A stretch of DNA of 64,000 nucleotides from Erysipelotrichaceae bacterium (lineage in GTDB: Bacteria; Bacillota_I; Bacilli_A; RFN20; CAG-449): NCBI GenBank assembly GCA_015059045.1, contig SVBD01000004.1, positions 22,773-86,772 of the forward strand, given 5' to 3'. The position numbers were made by a program, and so were the translations under genes. Below are positions 6,520 through 44,988 of the stretch, piece by piece (position 1 is the first letter of the stretch; every line of letters begins with the position of its first letter). The notes beneath the pieces were generated by a model that saw only the letters and a list, made by a program, of their open reading frames with translations, had not been told where the DNA came from and ran no database searches.

Positions 6520-6595
6520 TGGTGGAGATGACGGGGATCGAACCCGCTACCTCTTCGTTGCGAACGAAGCGCTCTCCCAGATGAGCTACACCCCC
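6520..6595 (-). tRNA. tRNA-Ala (CGC)
   Basis: GGGGGTG acceptor with G3:U70, anticodon arm CTTCG-TTCGCAA-CGAAG, GGTTCGATCC T-loop, encoded CCA; 76 nt. Confidence 0.97.
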
Positions 6596-10809: not shown

Positions 10810-10843
10810 AAAAACCATTCAAGTTTGTTTGAATGGTTTTTTT
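10810..10843. terminator. Bidirectional intrinsic terminator
   Basis: AAAACCATTCAA / TTGAATGGTTTT stem between convergent genes. Confidence 0.85.
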
Positions 10844-10847
10844 GTTA

Positions 10848-12152
10848 CTATTTACGTTTTACTCTTTTACCAATTGCGTAGTATTGAACATCTGGTAATA
10901 AGTATGGATTTAATACTGCTTTACCATCAAATACGATTGGTTTTTTCATATATTCAACAATTTGTTCGTTTGTTAATTTTTTGAATTCATCTGATTCATT
11001 TAAGAATACTGCGCAATCACAAGTTCTTAATGCTTCTTCTAATGAAGTTGCATAATCTAAGTGTTGATCTGATTTCATCTTCTTTTTAAATTGAAGAGTA
11101 GAATTTGTATCATAAGCAATAATTCTTCCTTCTTCTTGAAGAAGAGCTTCAATAAAATTAAATGCTGGTGATTTTCTTACATCATCGGTATTACCTTTAT
11201 ATGCTAGACCAAGTACTGCAAAACGGTGTCCTGCAATTTGTCCCATAACTGATTTAATCTTTTGAATAAGTGCTTCTGATCTCTTATCATTAACTTTTAA
11301 TGCAGCATTTAAGATTGATAATTCAACTTCCTTATCTTGAGCAAGTTGTTGCATAACTTTTGTATCTAAAGTTAAAGCAGGGCCACCAAAACCAACGCCT
11401 GAAGCCAAATATTTTGTTCCAATACGTGGATCTAAACCAATACCGAAACTTACTTCTTGAATATCTGCGCCTACTTTATCACATAAATCAGCAATTTCAT
11501 TAATGTAAGATAATTTAACCGCTAGATAGCTATTAGATGCATATTTAATTAATTCAGCACTTTCAGGAGAAACAAATAATAATGGTGATTCAAATCCTCG
11601 ATACAATTCCTTCATTACTTGTTGTGCTTTTTTAGTAGAAACTCCAACAACAATTCTACTTGGAGATAACATATCTTTTACTGCAGTTCCTTGTGATAAG
11701 AATTCTGGATTTGATACAACATCGATATTATATTTCTTTTCAGTAATTGCCATCATGTATTCTTTTAATTCGCGATTAGTACCAACAGGAACTGTTGTTC
11801 TAATAATTACAGTGACATCATGATTAATAAATCTACAACATTCTTTAGCAGCTTGATAAAGAGGAGAAAGATCGATTCTTCCTGTTTCTTTTTCTATTGG
11901 TTCAACTGCAAGCATAATAACAGAAGCATCATAAATAGCATCACGATATTCACTTGTAAATCTAATGTTATAATCATTCTTTTGTAGTATGTCGCTTAAT
12001 TTATATTCATTACTAATATTAATTTCGTTTCTTCTTAAAGCGGCAATTTTTTTCTTATCTCCGTCAAGTCCAAAAACTTGGTGACCTTTTTCTGCAAAGC
12101 CTACCGCATTTACAAGACCTACAAAATCCATACCTACGATTGTCAACTTCAT
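10848..12152 (-). CDS. UDP-glucose/GDP-mannose dehydrogenase family protein lacking the catalytic Cys
   Basis: SNPEFL, ELIKYASNSYLAVKLSYINE, DPRIG and GLAYKGNTDDVRKSP are present; GFGGSCFPKD reads GFGGPALTLD; GxGxxG reads GMDFVG. Confidence 0.88.
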   Translation of the reverse strand: MKLTIVGMDFVGLVNAVGFAEKGHQVFGLDGDKKKIAALRRNEINISNEYKLSDILQKNDYNIRFTSEYRDAIYDASVIMLAVEPIEKETGRIDLSPLYQAAKECCRFINHDVTVIIRTTVPVGTNRELKEYMMAITEKKYNIDVVSNPEFLSQGTAVKDMLSPSRIVVGVSTKKAQQVMKELYRGFESPLLFVSPESAELIKYASNSYLAVKLSYINEIADLCDKVGADIQEVSFGIGLDPRIGTKYLASGVGFGGPALTLDTKVMQQLAQDKEVELSILNAALKVNDKRSEALIQKIKSVMGQIAGHRFAVLGLAYKGNTDDVRKSPAFNFIEALLQEEGRIIAYDTNSTLQFKKKMKSDQHLDYATSLEEALRTCDCAVFLNESDEFKKLTNEQIVEYMKKPIVFDGKAVLNPYLLPDVQYYAIGKRVKRK

Positions 12153-12303
12153 AAAAACATCCCCTTACTTCATTATTAACAAATCACATATATTATTACA
12201 TAAAAAGTGGGAATATGCAATTTAAGAGCGCTTTCACATAAAAAATAAAATTATATAATAATTTTATAAAATATTTTTAATTGTAAAATAAAAAGTCGTA
12301 TTT

Positions 12304-13206
12304 CTACGACTTAATAAATTTTAATACATCCTTATAAACGATTTCTTTATCATCTTCATTTAAAATTTCATGTCTCATTCCTGGATAAATAATTAAAGAA
12401 GAAGAGATTTTTCTATTTGTATATAATCTTTGTAATTTTTTAATAGATTTAACATATCCACCTACTGGATCTTCGCTTCCTACGATAAATAATACTTTAG
12501 AATAAATATCAATTTTATTTAAATTCTTCTTTTTGAAAATTTTTGGAATAGATCCAATAAATGAAGCAAAGAAATTTCTTGAAGGCACATTACCACAATA
12601 AGGATCAGCAATATATTTATCTACATTTTCCTTATTAACACTCAACCAATCAAATTCGGTTCTCTTTTCCTTTACTTTTGAGTTATAAGAAGCAAAACTT
12701 ACTTTATTTAAGAAATATGATTTCTTCATGCCGTTTCCAGTAATAAATGCATGGAATTTACATAACGCACTACCAAAACCAAATAAAGGTGATGGTCCAC
12801 TTGTTCCACATAAAATAACTTTTTCTACAATTCCTGGATATCTTTCAATTAGCGATTGTCCCATAAAAGATCCCATTGAGTGAGCAAATAAAATTACTTC
12901 ATTTCCTTCTTCTTTTAATTTATTAATTAATAAAGCAAGGTTATCAACACAAATATCAAAACCATTTTTTGGCCATTTTAATAGATCTTCTGTGTTATCA
13001 ACATTTAATCCATGTCCAATATGATCTAATCCCATCACATTGATGCCATTATCATTTAAATATAAAGCAAAATCATTATAACGATAGGTATATTCATTCA
13101 TACCATGAGAAAGAACAACAACTTGTTTAACTTCTTCAGAAACAATCCATTTATTCCCTTTTACTACTTGGCCATTAGACCCTTTCATTTCAAAAACACT
13201 ATGCAT
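12304..13206 (-). CDS. Alpha/beta hydrolase (lysophospholipase/monoacylglycerol lipase-like)
   Basis: LSHGMNEY, DHIGHG, AHSMG, GSEDPVG, GMRHEILNE. Confidence 0.9.
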   Translation of the reverse strand: MHSVFEMKGSNGQVVKGNKWIVSEEVKQVVVLSHGMNEYTYRYNDFALYLNDNGINVMGLDHIGHGLNVDNTEDLLKWPKNGFDICVDNLALLINKLKEEGNEVILFAHSMGSFMGQSLIERYPGIVEKVILCGTSGPSPLFGFGSALCKFHAFITGNGMKKSYFLNKVSFASYNSKVKEKRTEFDWLSVNKENVDKYIADPYCGNVPSRNFFASFIGSIPKIFKKKNLNKIDIYSKVLFIVGSEDPVGGYVKSIKKLQRLYTNRKISSSLIIYPGMRHEILNEDDKEIVYKDVLKFIKS

Positions 13207-13208
13207 AA

Positions 13209-13544
13209 TTAATCTCCATAATCTGAACCACGCGATTTATCTTCAACATACACTTGTAGAGGATTACAAACATCTTGAATTGTAAGATAAATAGCACCTT
13301 CTACTTCAGTAAATTCATCATCTTCTTCTCCAACGAATACAACTAAATGATTTCTTTTTACTAATCTTTCCATTTCTTTAATTACTTCATCAAATCTTTC
13401 AGTAACAAATTGTTTAATACCCTCTAACTTTAATAAGAATACTGGTTCGACATAAAACTTATCTCCAGAAGGATAAATATAACAATAAGAATATGGGTTT
13501 TTACTATCAATAACCTTTTCTAGGTTATTCCATAAATTATTCAT
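13209..13544 (-). CDS. Conserved hypothetical acidic protein
   Basis: Clean ORF with RBS AGGTG, 2 nt from the hydrolase start; C-terminus EDKSRGSDYGD. Confidence 0.7.
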   Translation of the reverse strand: MNNLWNNLEKVIDSKNPYSYCYIYPSGDKFYVEPVFLLKLEGIKQFVTERFDEVIKEMERLVKRNHLVVFVGEEDDEFTEVEGAIYLTIQDVCNPLQVYVEDKSRGSDYGD

Positions 13545-13642
13545 TTTCATCACCTAATATAATTTTATAAAAAATATATTATCAATTCAACGACTTTAAC
13601 TAACTCGTTAATTTTGATATATTCTTATATATGGTGAATAAA

Positions 13643-17963: not shown

Positions 17964-18311
17964 ATGGATAAACACAATATATATAAGTTTTACAAAGATG
18001 ATTTAAAAAATAAAGATTCAAAATATAAAAAACTAGCGGTATTAAATTATTTTTTATCCGCTAGTTATATGTTAATAAATTTACTTTTATGGGGATTATT
18101 TTTTATTTCTAAAAATCTATCTGCCCTATTTACTTTTGTCGTTATTTTACAACTAATAAACGCTTATTTTGTTAATATATTAATAACTTTATTAGTGATA
18201 GTAAATTCAATATTACAATATAAGGTAACCAATAATATTCATTCTAAAATTAATATTGGTATATCACTTATCATTTTATCATTAACAACTATAAATATAA
18301 TCTTACTCTAA
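17964..18311 (+). CDS. Small hypothetical membrane protein
   Basis: GGTGA RBS before ATG 17964; three hydrophobic segments. Confidence 0.5.
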   Translation: MDKHNIYKFYKDDLKNKDSKYKKLAVLNYFLSASYMLINLLLWGLFFISKNLSALFTFVVILQLINAYFVNILITLLVIVNSILQYKVTNNIHSKINIGISLIILSLTTINIILL

Positions 18312-19253
18312 ATCCTCATCAATAATAAACATTGGTCTATTTTGACTTTCAATCATAATTCTAGATAGGTATTCTCCAAAGATTCCTAATACCAACAACA
18401 CAATTGATAAACAGAAGAACATACATAAAATTATAGTTAATACTCCAAAATTAAATCCAAATAGGAATTGATTATTTACTAAATGAATAATAAATAAAGT
18501 TAAATCCGCAACTAATCCCATAGATGAAATAAGACCGAAGAATATTGCTAATTTTAACGCCCATTTTAATGGTGAAACTGTACTTGAAACAATGCTATCT
18601 CCCGCTAATTTGAACATCGATTTATAGTTGTAATGAGTTTCACCTTTTGGTCTTTTTGCTCTAACAAATTCAACAGTTGTAGTTTTAAATCCGGCATAAG
18701 GAACTAGGACTCTAAATACACGATTTTTTTCTGGCAAACTATTAATTTCGTCAACTACTTTGCGGTCCATCAAACGATAATTCCCTACATTTTCTGGAAC
18801 TTTAATTTTGCCAGACATTTTGCTAATGATTTTATAGTACCAAGCTGCTGTTGTTCTTTTTAAGAACGAATCTGATTTACGATCAACTCTTTTTGCGTTA
18901 ACAACAAGATATCCTTCTTTATATTTTTCTAATAATTCAAAAATAACTTCAGGTGGATCTTGTAAGTCGGCATCCATAACAATCATTACATCACCTTTCG
19001 CACATTTAAAGCCTGCAGCAACAGCGGCTTCATGGCCAAAGTTTCTAGAAAAAGAAACAATATGAATATCATTGTTCTTCTTTTTATATTCTTTTAATAA
19101 TTCTAACGTTTTATCTCTACTACCATCATTAACGCAAACGATTTCTTTTGTATAGTCTTTAATTTGATTTAATACTTCTTCTATTTTTTCAAAAAATAAA
19201 GGAATCATTTCTTCTTCATTATACATAGGTACAATTAAGGATAATTTTTTCAT
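18303..19253 (-). CDS. GT2 polyprenyl-phosphate glycosyltransferase (GtrB/YkcC/CsbB-like)
   Basis: IVPMYNEE, VNDGSRD, SRNFGH, MDADLQDPP, two C-terminal TMs, QNRPMFII. Confidence 0.92.
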   Translation of the reverse strand: MKKLSLIVPMYNEEEMIPLFFEKIEEVLNQIKDYTKEIVCVNDGSRDKTLELLKEYKKKNNDIHIVSFSRNFGHEAAVAAGFKCAKGDVMIVMDADLQDPPEVIFELLEKYKEGYLVVNAKRVDRKSDSFLKRTTAAWYYKIISKMSGKIKVPENVGNYRLMDRKVVDEINSLPEKNRVFRVLVPYAGFKTTTVEFVRAKRPKGETHYNYKSMFKLAGDSIVSSTVSPLKWALKLAIFFGLISSMGLVADLTLFIIHLVNNQFLFGFNFGVLTIILCMFFCLSIVLLVLGIFGEYLSRIMIESQNRPMFIIDEDLE

Positions 19254-19448
19254 ATACACCACTCTTTTCTTTATTACAAATATTATAGCATTATTATTAA
19301 AAATTGGGTATTAATTAATTCTTTTTATCATATATTATTACCTCTAATGTAATTTGCACAAATTATTTTATATAAATAATCACATAAATGATTATTTCAT
19401 TACTCTTTTTTTATGATATAATAATTAAAAACAAAGGGAGGACAAAAT

Positions 19449-22400
19449 ATGGACTCAACAAATACAATCAATAGTTGGAAAGAAAAGATTAAAGCTAATT
19501 TATTAAAAGAGCACTTTTATAGTTATTCGACTGACGAATCATTTACTTTACCTATTATTAACGATGATACTAATAATCTTTTTGATTTATTGCTAAAAGG
19601 TGAAACATTCATTTTCGGAGAATTAAATGATGTTACATTCATTGGAAAAGCAATGAGTGACTTTATTAACGAACATCAAGGTGTAAACATTTTATTTTCA
19701 AACAAAAATCAAATTAAGCAAAGAGAAATATTAAATAAAATTATTGAGATCAATAACAATTCAATTGCGAATAATTCGTACTCTATTGCTTATCTTTCGT
19801 TTGGGAAAATCACTTATCAATTAGATGGTAAAAAATTCCAAGCCCCTTTAGTTTTTATTCCTGTTAGAGTGTTTAAATCAACAAAGGATAATTATTATCG
19901 CGTTGTAAGATTAAACAAAGAAATTAAATTAAATACTCCATTAATTGAATTATTAAAAAAAGAAAGAAAAATTGATTTATCTTATCCAGTAAATAATAAA
20001 TTCAATTTAGGAGAATACTTATATTACTTATCAGTAAAAGTTAAACCAATTAACTGGATTGTTAATAATGAGAATTTCTTATCTTGTTTTGATTTTTCAT
20101 ATTACTCAGATTTGAAATTCATTAACGAAAACCAAAACATTATCGCCCAAAATCAATTGGTTAAAAGAATTGCTTATTTGAATTCTGAATTCTTCTCATT
20201 CAATCAAAAAGAATCTTTCCCATTAGATACTAAGTTTTTATCTTTATTAGATATGCAAAATGAGGAATATAATTTGTTAAGAACTATTTCTCGTGGTGAT
20301 AATTTATTAATTAGATGTGAACAACATTCAAATAAATATCACTTTATTACCAATGTAATTTTAACTTATTTATTAAACAACAAGCGCGTTCTTTTAGCTT
20401 ATTCAAATAACGAAGAGAAAAATGAACTACTTAATGAAATCAAAAAGAACTCTATTGAAAAATTTACTTTAGATTTATCTTTAGGATCAATTAACAAAAC
20501 TGACACTTTAGCGTCTTTAAGTAGTTATGATAAGTTAGTTCTTCCTTATAATAGTTTACACCCAATCGCAATTGATGAAGATGTAACTAGATACTATAAT
20601 CTTAAAAATTCATTCCAAGAAATCATCAATAGTTTGCGTACAACCAAAAATTCTTTAAATACATCAATTAATAAAATTATTAACAATTACTATGCTTTGG
20701 CAAAATATCCATTATTAGACGTTTCTTTCAAAGCTACAAATAAAATTGATTTAGAAGTATTGCAACAATATTTACTTCTTGTTAAGGAATTTGCAAATTC
20801 AATTGAAGCTTTAAATTGCCCTATCGAAGAACACCCTTTCTATGGATTCAATCGAAAAGTTATGAAGAAAGAAGACTACATACCATTAAAAAATAGCGTA
20901 ATTTCTCTTTCTGCAACTTTACAAGATGCAATTAATATTTATAACTATGGAGTTAAAAAATATCATCTTCCTTCAGTTTCTACCTTAAAGGAAATGAAAG
21001 CAGTCTTAAACATTTTAACTTTCGTAGATTATTATAAAGATCTTCCTATTGATTTTTTAAAGGACGATATTATTGATGAAACATATGATAAACTTAAAAA
21101 TCTATATTTAAAAATTGAACAAAATAATCAAAAATTAGATTCACTATGGGGAAATTATCCTTTACTAAAAAATATTTCTTTAGAGGAATTAGAACAAGCT
21201 AATAAATCAAAGAAAAAGAAAACTGCATATGCGTCTTTAAAGAAAAAATACCAAGTAAAACATCTTTCGACTAATGAATATGGATATTTGTTCGATTCTA
21301 TCTTGTCTTTATTAAGAGTTAAACAAAACTTAGAAGAAATTAAATTGAGTTTTAATCATAGTTACATAGAATTTTTAAGCAATCATACTTTTGAAGAGCT
21401 TAGAGAAATTATTAATAACATTAACAATTATCGTTACAACCTTAATTACTTAAGCGATAAGAGTTCATTTGATATTTGTTATTTAGTTAAAGATACTAAT
21501 ATTGAATCAAGTAAACACCGTCAAGCAATGCAATTAGCATTTAATTCAATTTTATCTAACAGTCAAATCGTCCAAAAATACTTTGACAAAAATGTATTTA
21601 ATTACGAAAAGATTAATTTAGATGTTTATTTAGAAAAAATTAATATGCTATCTTTAAACTTTGCTTCTGTTAATGATTATATCGATTACTATGTATCAAA
21701 ACATAAAATCAACAAGGCAATGAATATGCTTGGAGATAAGTTATTAGAGTGTGGTCATTATTCTAACTTTGAAAATATCTTCTTAAAGAGATTCTATTAT
21801 GACTTATTAACTGCAACACTTAAAAACAAGAAAATGTCAGATAGTCTAAGTAGAAAAAATATCTTTAGTTTATTAGAAAACTTCAAAGATAGCGATAATA
21901 AAAGAAAGAGTTTAATTGAAAAAATTATTTATAATAACTTCTCTAAAAATACAAGTACTACTCTTTACAACATTAAAGCAACCGAAGGAAATGAAATTAA
22001 AAAATTACTAAGTGATGAAAATTATTTCATTAATTTAGATTCTCTATGTGAGCTCTTCTCACAAAGTATTCATAATTTTAAACCATGTGTATTAACAAGT
22101 TATAAAAACGTTTCTTCGTTATTAAATAATAAAAATTATCAATTTGATGTCGTAATTTTATTATCTAATCGTTCAATGAAAATTAGAGACGTTCTTCCTT
22201 GCCTAGTTAAATCAAATCAATTATTAGTAATTGATCAAAAACCATTAACCGAAGATATTAGAAGTTCATTAATTACAAGTTCTAATCCTGCTAATTTAGT
22301 TTTTGCAAGCAAAAATACATTCAACGAAATCGTCTATACTCAAAGAGATCACTCTCTTGCATCGTTAATTCAAAATAATCTATATGATTTAGACTTTAAA

Positions 22401-23237
22401 GCATACTTAGTTGAAAAATTAAATGATTATGGATTTGATGTTGGAATGAATCGTGCATTAAATGACCAAGTCATTGATATCTTAGTCAAAGTTCCAAATT
22501 CTAATTCTTCAATTGCAATTATGGTCGATCACTTCCCTTACTATTCTCCAGAAGAAGCAAGTGAAGCGTTCTATTATCAAGAACAATTCTTAAAAGATAA
22601 AGGATATAGTCCATATCGAGTATTCACCGCTCTTTTCTTCATCGATGAAGAAAATGAATTTAACAAACTAATTGAATTCATCATCGCTCAATCCAAACTT
22701 ATTCCTGAAGCAGCTGTTAAGAAAAATACTATATTGTTGATGGATTACCTTTTCCCATTATTTAAAGATCCTAGACATGTATATTACGAATTAACTAACG
22801 TTAATAAACTAAATGAAAAATTAACTTCTTTCTTAGAAGAATGTGCTCCTATTTCTCTTGATGAAATACGTGTTGTATTTAAAGAGAATATTGAAGAAGA
22901 ACTTAACAATTTAGCTGCAAGCGGATTAATTGAAATTAAAGATAATTTTATTTTATTGATTGGCAAGAAAATTCGTTTTAGAAGAGTAGATAGAAACAAA
23001 GAATTCTATCGTCCTTTAGACCTTGTTAGCGACATTGAATACTATGATGCAATTTACGATATTATCAACTATAAATCTTCGTTAGATAAAGATACAATCA
23101 TTAAAATGATTCTTCTTTCTTTGGGCTATAAGAAAGCAAATAAAGAAAAATATGAGTTTGTCGAAGAAAGAATCGATTATTTATTAGAACAAAAAGTAAT
23201 TTTTATTGAAAATAATATTATTTATAAAAACATTTAA
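19449..23237 (+). CDS. DUF4011 / degenerate SF1 helicase / Vsr-like (MTES_1575) nuclease / DUF3320 protein (Hhe-like), catalytic motifs eroded
   Basis: WKEKI N-terminus, YLSFG..FQAPLVFIPV (DUF4011), PCVLTSY..V..FDVVI (pre-Walker B), and an IDILVK..IAIMVD..Y..GY..YRVF nuclease-like block. Confidence 0.75.
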   Translation: MDSTNTINSWKEKIKANLLKEHFYSYSTDESFTLPIINDDTNNLFDLLLKGETFIFGELNDVTFIGKAMSDFINEHQGVNILFSNKNQIKQREILNKIIEINNNSIANNSYSIAYLSFGKITYQLDGKKFQAPLVFIPVRVFKSTKDNYYRVVRLNKEIKLNTPLIELLKKERKIDLSYPVNNKFNLGEYLYYLSVKVKPINWIVNNENFLSCFDFSYYSDLKFINENQNIIAQNQLVKRIAYLNSEFFSFNQKESFPLDTKFLSLLDMQNEEYNLLRTISRGDNLLIRCEQHSNKYHFITNVILTYLLNNKRVLLAYSNNEEKNELLNEIKKNSIEKFTLDLSLGSINKTDTLASLSSYDKLVLPYNSLHPIAIDEDVTRYYNLKNSFQEIINSLRTTKNSLNTSINKIINNYYALAKYPLLDVSFKATNKIDLEVLQQYLLLVKEFANSIEALNCPIEEHPFYGFNRKVMKKEDYIPLKNSVISLSATLQDAINIYNYGVKKYHLPSVSTLKEMKAVLNILTFVDYYKDLPIDFLKDDIIDETYDKLKNLYLKIEQNNQKLDSLWGNYPLLKNISLEELEQANKSKKKKTAYASLKKKYQVKHLSTNEYGYLFDSILSLLRVKQNLEEIKLSFNHSYIEFLSNHTFEELREIINNINNYRYNLNYLSDKSSFDICYLVKDTNIESSKHRQAMQLAFNSILSNSQIVQKYFDKNVFNYEKINLDVYLEKINMLSLNFASVNDYIDYYVSKHKINKAMNMLGDKLLECGHYSNFENIFLKRFYYDLLTATLKNKKMSDSLSRKNIFSLLENFKDSDNKRKSLIEKIIYNNFSKNTSTTLYNIKATEGNEIKKLLSDENYFINLDSLCELFSQSIHNFKPCVLTSYKNVSSLLNNKNYQFDVVILLSNRSMKIRDVLPCLVKSNQLLVIDQKPLTEDIRSSLITSSNPANLVFASKNTFNEIVYTQRDHSLASLIQNNLYDLDFKAYLVEKLNDYGFDVGMNRALNDQVIDILVKVPNSNSSIAIMVDHFPYYSPEEASEAFYYQEQFLKDKGYSPYRVFTALFFIDEENEFNKLIEFIIAQSKLIPEAAVKKNTILLMDYLFPLFKDPRHVYYELTNVNKLNEKLTSFLEECAPISLDEIRVVFKENIEEELNNLAASGLIEIKDNFILLIGKKIRFRRVDRNKEFYRPLDLVSDIEYYDAIYDIINYKSSLDKDTIIKMILLSLGYKKANKEKYEFVEERIDYLLEQKVIFIENNIIYKNI

Positions 23238-30477: not shown

Positions 30478-30554
<77 letters not shown>

Positions 30555-44817: not shown

Positions 44818-44970
44818 TGTGGCACCTCCTTCTTTCTTAAATTGAAATAATGTATAGGCAACAATATACAGAGTTATTCTATCATTAATCTGAATTGTGT
44901 AATTCGTTTATGAATAGTTACCTCGGCAACATGATTAAGCCCCTTGGCCGTTGCTGTCTATGGTATATTG
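44818..44970 (-). ncRNA. L10 leader (rplJ autoregulatory RNA)
   Basis: Minus strand CCATAGACAGCAAC...CTTAAT..GTTGCCGAGG matches the L10-leader kink-turn consensus (agacagcag...ttaa...ctgccgagg). Confidence 0.85.
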
Positions 44971-44988
44971 GAGCTTTCTTAATTTGAA

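Follow-up and report, generated by a model that had tools for sequence, protein, structure and literature searches.

A family-wide cysteine-less homologue of UDP-glucose dehydrogenase in gut Bacilli, a candidate UDP-sugar-binding pseudoenzyme

UDP (uridine diphosphate)-glucose 6-dehydrogenase (UGDH; EC 1.1.1.22) performs a four-electron oxidation that depends on nicotinamide adenine dinucleotide (NAD), and the residues involved are well described. Eighteen residues are invariant in 229 nucleotide-sugar dehydrogenases, with roles assigned by Freas et al. (PMC4794789). In SpUDPGDH, Thr83 contacts the 3′-OH of the nicotinamide ribose and Tyr10, which is 98% conserved, takes part in thioester hydrolysis (PMC4794789); Lys263 lies 2.9 Å from the 2′-OH of the same ribose. 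In human UGDH, the equivalent of Lys263, Lys279, helps to shape the NAD pocket, and Tyr14, Glu161 and Glu165 govern coenzyme binding and release (PMC3129169). With the nucleophilic cysteine replaced, UDP-glucose is not turned over by SpUGDH C260A and only very slowly by hUGDH C276A, since formation of the thiohemiacetal is coupled to the first hydride transfer; SpUGDH C260A does oxidize the free aldehyde (PMC3265891), and an amide-forming route has been claimed for a C260A mutant (PMC6367545). A UGDH-family protein of lincomycin biosynthesis, LmbL, acts with LmbZ/CcbZ on a GDP-octose and works with CcbZ (reviewed in PMC12945683). Here, we describe a natural cysteine-less member of this family, the query, encoded at 10848-12152 on the minus strand of a 64,000-nucleotide stretch (the window) of contig SVBD01000004.1 from Erysipelotrichaceae bacterium. 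Our search of the literature for UGDH pseudoenzymes and natural cysteine-less forms turned up neither, and no paper describing the clade to which it belongs. We somewhat favor the interpretation that the gene product binds a UDP-sugar without turnover and acts through that binding.

The query belongs to the UDP-glucose/GDP-mannose dehydrogenase superfamily at the level of the fold, as an earlier note on this DNA had proposed, and four features that define the enzyme fail in it. The open reading frame encodes 434 amino acids, in which Pfam detects the N-terminal (PF03721, residues 1-183, 6e-43), central (PF00984, 197-289, 1e-30) and C-terminal (PF03720, 312-416, 2e-26) domains. Among NCBIfam models, it passes that of the nucleotide-sugar dehydrogenase subfamily, TIGR03026, with 381 bits (the cut-off is 190), and the equivalog cut-offs of TuaD (359 of 700 bits), AglM (298 of 670) and PRK15057 (127 of 757) are not reached. 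The best match to a solved structure by HMMER is Sphingomonas UgdG (4a7p; E = 8e-83, 34-36% identity), and the AF2 model (predicted local distance difference test, pLDDT, 93.9) superposes on Burkholderia BceC (2y0c) with a template modeling (TM) score of 0.93. The product is thus predicted to be well folded, with a complete UGDH fold, and it is probably dimeric.

Within this fold, the residues of redox chemistry are missing. HMMER aligns the GYGGSCFPKD motif of the UDP-glucose dehydrogenases 4a7p, 3gg2 and 2y0e over GFGGPALTLD in the query (11364-11393, minus strand, as are all gene features below), which replaces Ser258 by Pro, Cys259 by Ala and Lys262 by Leu and retains Asp263. The Ala259 codon is GCT at 11376-11378, and codon and alignment agree that the catalytic Cys and the following Lys are gone. 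The Rossmann motif GxGYVG reads GMDFVG (12117-12134), in which the second glycine has become Asp and Tyr10 has become Phe, and AVGTP reads AVEPI (11895-11909), in which the nicotinamide-ribose-binding Thr (SpUDPGDH Thr83) has given way to Pro85; both substitutions, which the earlier note had also seen, stand in the alignment to 4a7p, where GTGYVG lies over GMDFVG and AVGTP over AVEPI. Relative to the 18-residue set in SpUDPGDH numbering, the query has lost Gly9 (now Asp), Thr83 (now Pro) and Cys260 (now Ala), carries a conservative Ser117-to-Thr change, and has kept Gly7, Gly12, Thr118, Pro140, Glu141, Glu201, Lys204, Asn208, Asn219, Gly257, Gly258, Asp264, Asn287 and Lys320. Outside the set, Tyr10 (now Phe) and Lys263 (now Leu) are also lost. 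The base of thioester hydrolysis, Glu150, is present in NPEFLSQG (11688-11711). The SQG of this motif and an R/S-T-V-P segment are common to the Cys-bearing relatives and hence not peculiar to the query.

Comparison of 106 clade members with 147 Cys-bearing relatives shows that these losses are selective. All 106 clade members have A, S, W or G at position 259, where all 147 nearest relatives have Cys; position 262 is Q, L, M, T or I and never K, and position 10 is F or L and never Y. Position 9 is D in 67% of the clade and G in 30%, with N or S in the rest, and is G in 146 of the 147 relatives. Positions 85-86 carry many different residues, with T at the Thr83 site in just 22%, and position 150 is E, D, V, T, L or A, so that the Glu of the query drifts in other members. 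The positions serving the nicotinamide side of NAD and thioester chemistry are therefore replaced or variable throughout. The contacts to the UDP-sugar behave in the opposite way: Lys203, Asn207, Asp263, Arg243, Gly256/257 and Lys319 of the query, which correspond to SpUDPGDH Lys204, Asn208, Asp264, Arg244′, Gly257/258 and Lys320, are 100% conserved in the clade. Lys203 and Asn207, which contact the sugar C6, lie in IKYASN (11532-11549); Arg243, which reaches the sugar in the other dimer subunit, lies in DPRIG (11418-11432); and Lys319, which contacts the UDP diphosphate, lies in GLAYKGNTDDVRKSP (11166-11210). The motifs that had been called intact from the query's own letters, for the first-step Lys/Asn and for UDP binding, are thus kept clade-wide.

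The selective loss of thiol and nicotinamide residues, the strict retention of the UDP-sugar pocket and the strong purifying selection described below make classical activity very unlikely, and most probably the protein is not a UDP-glucose 6-dehydrogenase in the sense of EC 1.1.1.22. The pseudoenzyme alternative raised in the earlier note fits this pattern, with Cys, the Lys of FPKD and Tyr10 gone clade-wide, the second Rossmann Gly gone in two thirds and the UDP-sugar contacts invariant. The more specific idea of a sensor is no more than a guess, as we found no partner, link to an operon or fused form. Its other suggestion, a one-step oxidation, fares poorly: mutants with Ala for Cys show little or no activity on UDP-glucose because their first oxidation step is tied to formation of the thiohemiacetal, and the nicotinamide-side NAD contacts have disappeared. 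In the mechanism we propose, the NAD-dependent four-electron oxidation would no longer be performed, and a UDP-sugar, presumably UDP-glucose made by GalU, whose gene is in the same genome, would be bound without turnover, giving the protein a role as regulator, sensor or buffer.

The substitutions are neither chance nor assembly error, since the same changes recur in all orthologues and in independent RNA-library contigs. In a first sample of the same GTDB family, all 24 genomes carried a cysteine-less orthologue, and when the whole family of five genera was covered, each of its 31 species genomes had the gene as a single intact frame, at 62-89% identity. In a collection of 5.8 billion proteins, the Cys is absent from every match of about 60% identity or more (106 full-length clusters checked), with the clade motif G-[FY]-G-G-P-[ASWG]-[LI]-[PTS]-[QLMTI]-D; below the clade, identity falls sharply to 42-44% and the proteins read GYGG[ST]CFPKD. 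The cysteine-less motif is therefore the property of a family-wide clade and not, as would have undone the earlier reading, a one-off among close relatives that keep Ser-Cys. In a library of 50%-identity representatives the clade is a single entry, and C..KD is kept in 140 of the 142 nearest representatives. Clade records are metagenome-assembled genomes of uncultured gut organisms, filed as "Bacilli bacterium" or "Erysipelotrichaceae bacterium", with sources including human gut and rabbit. A canonical ugd elsewhere in the query's own genome had been a further concern, and a second family member was not found there (1.44 Mb, 95% complete); other dehydrogenase-family matches in the same GTDB family are at most 37% identical.

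Purifying selection on the gene is strong. Ratios of nonsynonymous to synonymous substitution (dN/dS), calculated by the Nei-Gojobori method for pairs with unsaturated or near-unsaturated dS, are 0.064 for the query gene against L057 (dS 0.09), 0.060 for L013 against L016 (dS 0.28), 0.074 for L011 against L012 (dS 0.42) and 0.015 for L004 against L005 (dS 0.96). Across 15 representatives less than 80% identical to one another, 31% of positions are invariant, and within-family identity (62-89%) matches or exceeds that of the neighbors, at 62-77% for the SpoU methylase and 30-75% for the others. That the gene is functionless and decaying is accordingly a very remote prospect. The loss of catalytic residues would suit such a fate, as would P0158, a homologue on a very long branch that has also lost the UDP-diphosphate Lys; intact frames in every genome of the family, dN/dS of 0.015-0.07, the invariant positions, the RNA-library contigs and conservation equal to that of the neighboring rRNA methylase speak against it. 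As a single-copy core gene of its family, it encodes a function that matters to the organism. Lineages that keep the glycine motif intact and lineages that have lost it are under equally strong selection, which suggests that the conserved function can do without this motif.

The distribution of constraint has also changed. Mean column entropies in the clade and in canonical enzymes are 0.98 and 2.03 for the N-terminal domain, 0.62 and 1.62 for the central domain, and 0.66 and 2.21 for the C-terminal domain, which shows that constraint has shifted away from the first domain. Replacements fixed in the clade comprise Lys118Arg, Ser258Pro, Phe318Tyr, Pro349Ser/Thr, Thr385Asn, Trp387Ser, Arg411Lys and Asn412Ala/Gly, and the majority fall in the C-terminal nucleotide domain, where TEW has become NES (10992-11000) and DGRN has become DGKA (DGK at 10920-10928) within the segment 10920-11000. 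Positions in helix 33-43 and in 353-381 are newly invariant in the clade and variable in canonical enzymes; the patch at 353-381 is marginal, with 8 such positions among 25 consecutive residues, where shuffling gives a 95th percentile of 7. We speculate, tentatively, that the protein could be a core family-wide receptor for UDP-glucose or another UDP-sugar, derived from a dehydrogenase, which would sense the pool of nucleotide sugars with its retained substrate pocket and relay its state via helix 33-43 and 353-381 to a target in envelope or glycolipid synthesis. The genome encodes a monoglucosyl-diacylglycerol-synthase-like glycosyltransferase of family GT4 and a PgfS-like one of family GT2, both under the equivalog cut-offs, and three penicillin-binding proteins.

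Several observations weigh against binding without turnover. The adenosine-side NAD contacts Asp30, Lys35 and Arg326 are invariant in the clade and deeper genera retain an intact GxGxxG (GIGFVG), so that some nucleotide may still occupy the first domain. The invariance of Lys203, Asn207, Asp263 and Thr120 appears to exceed what bare binding would need, and the ligand may not be UDP-glucose, because residues of the C-terminal pocket (Phe318Tyr, Pro349Ser, Thr385Asn, Trp387Ser, Arg411Lys, Asn412Ala) were replaced and then fixed. LmbL, a family member reportedly without the Cys, is described as a working enzyme that has a partner (PMC12945683). In addition, a regulatory circuit is not indicated by any operon partner, fusion or riboswitch. 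The first of these observations could be accommodated if the protein had remained an oxidoreductase that uses NAD but runs a different chemistry, for example thiol-free oxidation of the hydrated aldehyde, two-electron oxidation with release of the aldehyde or capture of an amine to give a product of the UDP-glucuronamide type. The very slow product formation by hUGDH C276A and the aldehyde oxidation by SpUGDH C260A lend this some chemical precedent, in addition to the invariant Lys203, Asn207, Asp263 and Thr120 and the adenosine-side Asp30 and Arg326. We nevertheless regard it as improbable, since no member retains Lys263 or Tyr10, about 70% lack Gly9 and most lack Thr83, position 259 tolerates Trp, Glu150 drifts to T, L, A or V in some lineages, selection is indifferent to the glycine motif, and C-to-A mutants show little or no activity on UDP-glucose.

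The replaced pocket residues raise a different question, namely whether the fold has been re-used for another ligand (a nucleotide, a lipid-linked compound or a protein), with dehydrogenase ancestry supplying only the scaffold. The fixed replacements at 318, 349, 385, 387, 411 and 412 do line the C-terminal nucleotide domain, and the newly invariant segments, subject to the marginal enrichment noted above, would suit a new ligand; most of the replacements, however, are conservative, such as Lys for Arg or Tyr for Phe, and the direct UDP-glucose contacts Lys319, Gly256/257, Arg243, Lys203 and Asn207 are all invariant, so we consider such re-use unlikely. The sugar pocket also keeps its general acid/base residues invariant, as might be expected if the protein were an enzyme that acts on a nucleotide sugar without redox chemistry, or one working with an oxidoreductase encoded elsewhere, in the manner of LmbL with LmbZ/CcbZ. 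The enzymatic role of LmbL with CcbZ is established (PMC12945683), and the genome holds one Gfo/Idh/MocA gene. That gene lies on another contig, however, no oxidoreductase is a conserved neighbor, sugar-pathway genes are lacking around the query, and the clade branches inside the Cys-bearing Bacilli ugd, which argues for an independent Cys loss and not for kinship with LmbL; we regard this arrangement as improbable. Binding of a UDP-sugar without turnover remains for us the most parsimonious positive reading.

In a quick maximum-likelihood tree (IQ-TREE), the clade sequences are monophyletic with a Shimodaira-Hasegawa-like approximate likelihood ratio test (SH-aLRT) support of 100, on a stem of 0.77 changes per site with short inner branches, and their sister group is Cys-bearing and dominated by Bacilli. 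A genome of another family in the same order (G040) has a homologue of 39-41% identity at the same genomic position (L043), which reads GLGYVG, AVGTP and GIGYGGACLPKD and bears the Cys; the cysteine-less gene has therefore evolved on the spot from a stand-alone ugd of ordinary appearance. The G040 gene, too, is stand-alone and outside any polysaccharide cluster. By the branching order, the thiol and nicotinamide contacts would have been lost earlier and the pyrophosphate glycine later. We propose that in the ancestor of one gut Bacilli family a resident stand-alone ugd lost the Cys, the Tyr of thioester hydrolysis and, with the Thr of GTP and the Lys of FPKD, its contacts to the nicotinamide ribose, and that later, in most of this genus, the pyrophosphate-contacting Gly of GxGxxG would have followed, while the sugar and UDP-diphosphate pocket was held invariant and the C-terminal nucleotide domain may have become the most constrained part. 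The tree sample also contained P0158 (L058:759-2087), a second, independent cysteine-less homologue with the motifs GFASTKIPKE and GLSNIG, in which the Lys for the UDP diphosphate is missing as well (GLSTNGNSSD). It forms a separate, very long branch next to the sister group that bears the Cys, is known from one 2.1-kb contig and may be a decaying copy. Five further proteins of about 943 amino acids (P0121, P0270-P0273) consist of two UDP-glucose dehydrogenases in tandem; GWGG[SG]CLPKD is kept in either half of P0121, and GxGxxG was found in the second half only.

The gene is its own transcription unit. A bidirectional terminator-like hairpin with a 13- to 14-bp stem and U-tracts on both strands (10810-10841) lies just after the stop codon and is shared with a convergent membrane-protein gene, and a second terminator-like hairpin (12293-12312, minus strand) ends the upstream alpha/beta-hydrolase gene. 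These two hairpins, after the stop and between the hydrolase gene and the query, bear out the earlier description of the gene as monocistronic. By eye, a putative promoter (12161-12220) comprises TTGCAT (12220-12215), 17 nt and TG-n-AATAAT (12200-12192), and a putative Shine-Dalgarno sequence AAGGGG lies at 12166-12161. Contigs from four cattle metatranscriptome runs in two studies cover the coding sequence with near-identical sequence, and one of them spans 10903-12168; they fit transcription without proving it, since DNA carry-over in the libraries is possible. No RNA-library contig covers 12213-12339, and the contigs of one study end at 12168; neither the gap nor the ends count as evidence, the ends being at most a weak hint of an own promoter. 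Rfam places no family near the gene, its matches in the window being the ribosomal protein L10 leader (44835-44981) and two tRNA genes (6523-6595 and 30481-30554), all on the minus strand. The clade contains no fused form, and the best longer proteins, at most 44% identical, are canonical fusions or intein-bearing enzymes.

The gene also lies outside any polysaccharide cluster, as stated before. Its neighbors encode an acyl-acyl carrier protein thioesterase, a formate/nitrite-type transporter, a SpoU methylase, a membrane protein, a hydrolase, a 114-amino acid protein, a Cof-type phosphatase and an FTCD_C protein, unrelated to polysaccharide synthesis. Their order is broadly syntenic in the family, with differences in orientation and insertions, and no oxidoreductase is conserved among them. 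The 114-amino acid protein (13209-13553, minus strand) was considered as a partner but dismissed, because 36 of the order's 41 genomes have it, several of them with no dehydrogenase homologue, and because it lies on another contig in G027. It had no Pfam match and no match in an Atlas search, and its gene nearly always adjoins those of the Cof-type phosphatase and the FTCD_C protein. Elsewhere in the window, the gene of the PgfS-like glycosyltransferase (18303-19262, minus strand) adjoins a 1262-amino acid open reading frame (19449-23237, plus strand) with partial NCBIfam matches to the anti-phage helicase families ProA (1e-40) and Hhe (1e-19), far under the cut-offs.

Annotation pipelines label the clade protein "UDPglucose 6-dehydrogenase" or a plain family protein. 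Databases that give it the enzyme's name are very probably wrong, and metabolic models of gut and rumen Bacilli that follow the name would wrongly credit these organisms with UDP-glucuronate synthesis. The clade is a natural experiment in which a four-electron dehydrogenase has been turned into something else, with the Cys-bearing gene at the same position in the sister family as its natural control, and it adds an independent lineage to the few cysteine-less members of this enzyme family.

With the bacterial Ugd, TuaD and HasB enzymes (4a7p, 2y0c-e, 3gg2 and S. pyogenes 1dli), the query shares the three domains, the sugar and UDP contacts and the Arg that reaches across the dimer; it differs from them in having no catalytic Cys, Tyr10, Thr of GTP or Lys of FPKD, and in having Asp as the second Rossmann residue in place of Gly. 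Its nearest relatives are the sister Bacilli ugd (P0111-P0119, P0122 and G040), at 39-44% identity, which share NPEFLSQG and RSTVPVG with it but keep GxGYVG, (G/D)TP and G-G-[SAT]-C-x-P-K-D and are divided from the clade by the long stem; G040 also shares as neighbors the 114-amino acid protein and the Cof-type phosphatase, with a 318-amino acid gene in place of the hydrolase. The engineered mutants SpUGDH C260A, hUGDH C276A and SzUGDH C260A carry the same single replacement of the nucleophile as the query. They keep a full NAD site, whereas the natural clade has dismantled that site and fixed about ten more replacements. LmbL, which reportedly lacks the catalytic Cys, has an oxidoreductase partner encoded next to it in a sugar-pathway cluster; the query, in contrast, is monocistronic, with neither such a cluster nor an adjacent partner. 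Finally, Gal3p, the yeast paralogue of galactokinase, is an enzyme-derived sensor that binds its substrate, has lost catalysis and signals through binding. It has no homology to the clade protein and serves as a conceptual analogy only, but if the tentative receptor reading given above is true, bacteria would have, in a former dehydrogenase, their own equivalent of such sensors.

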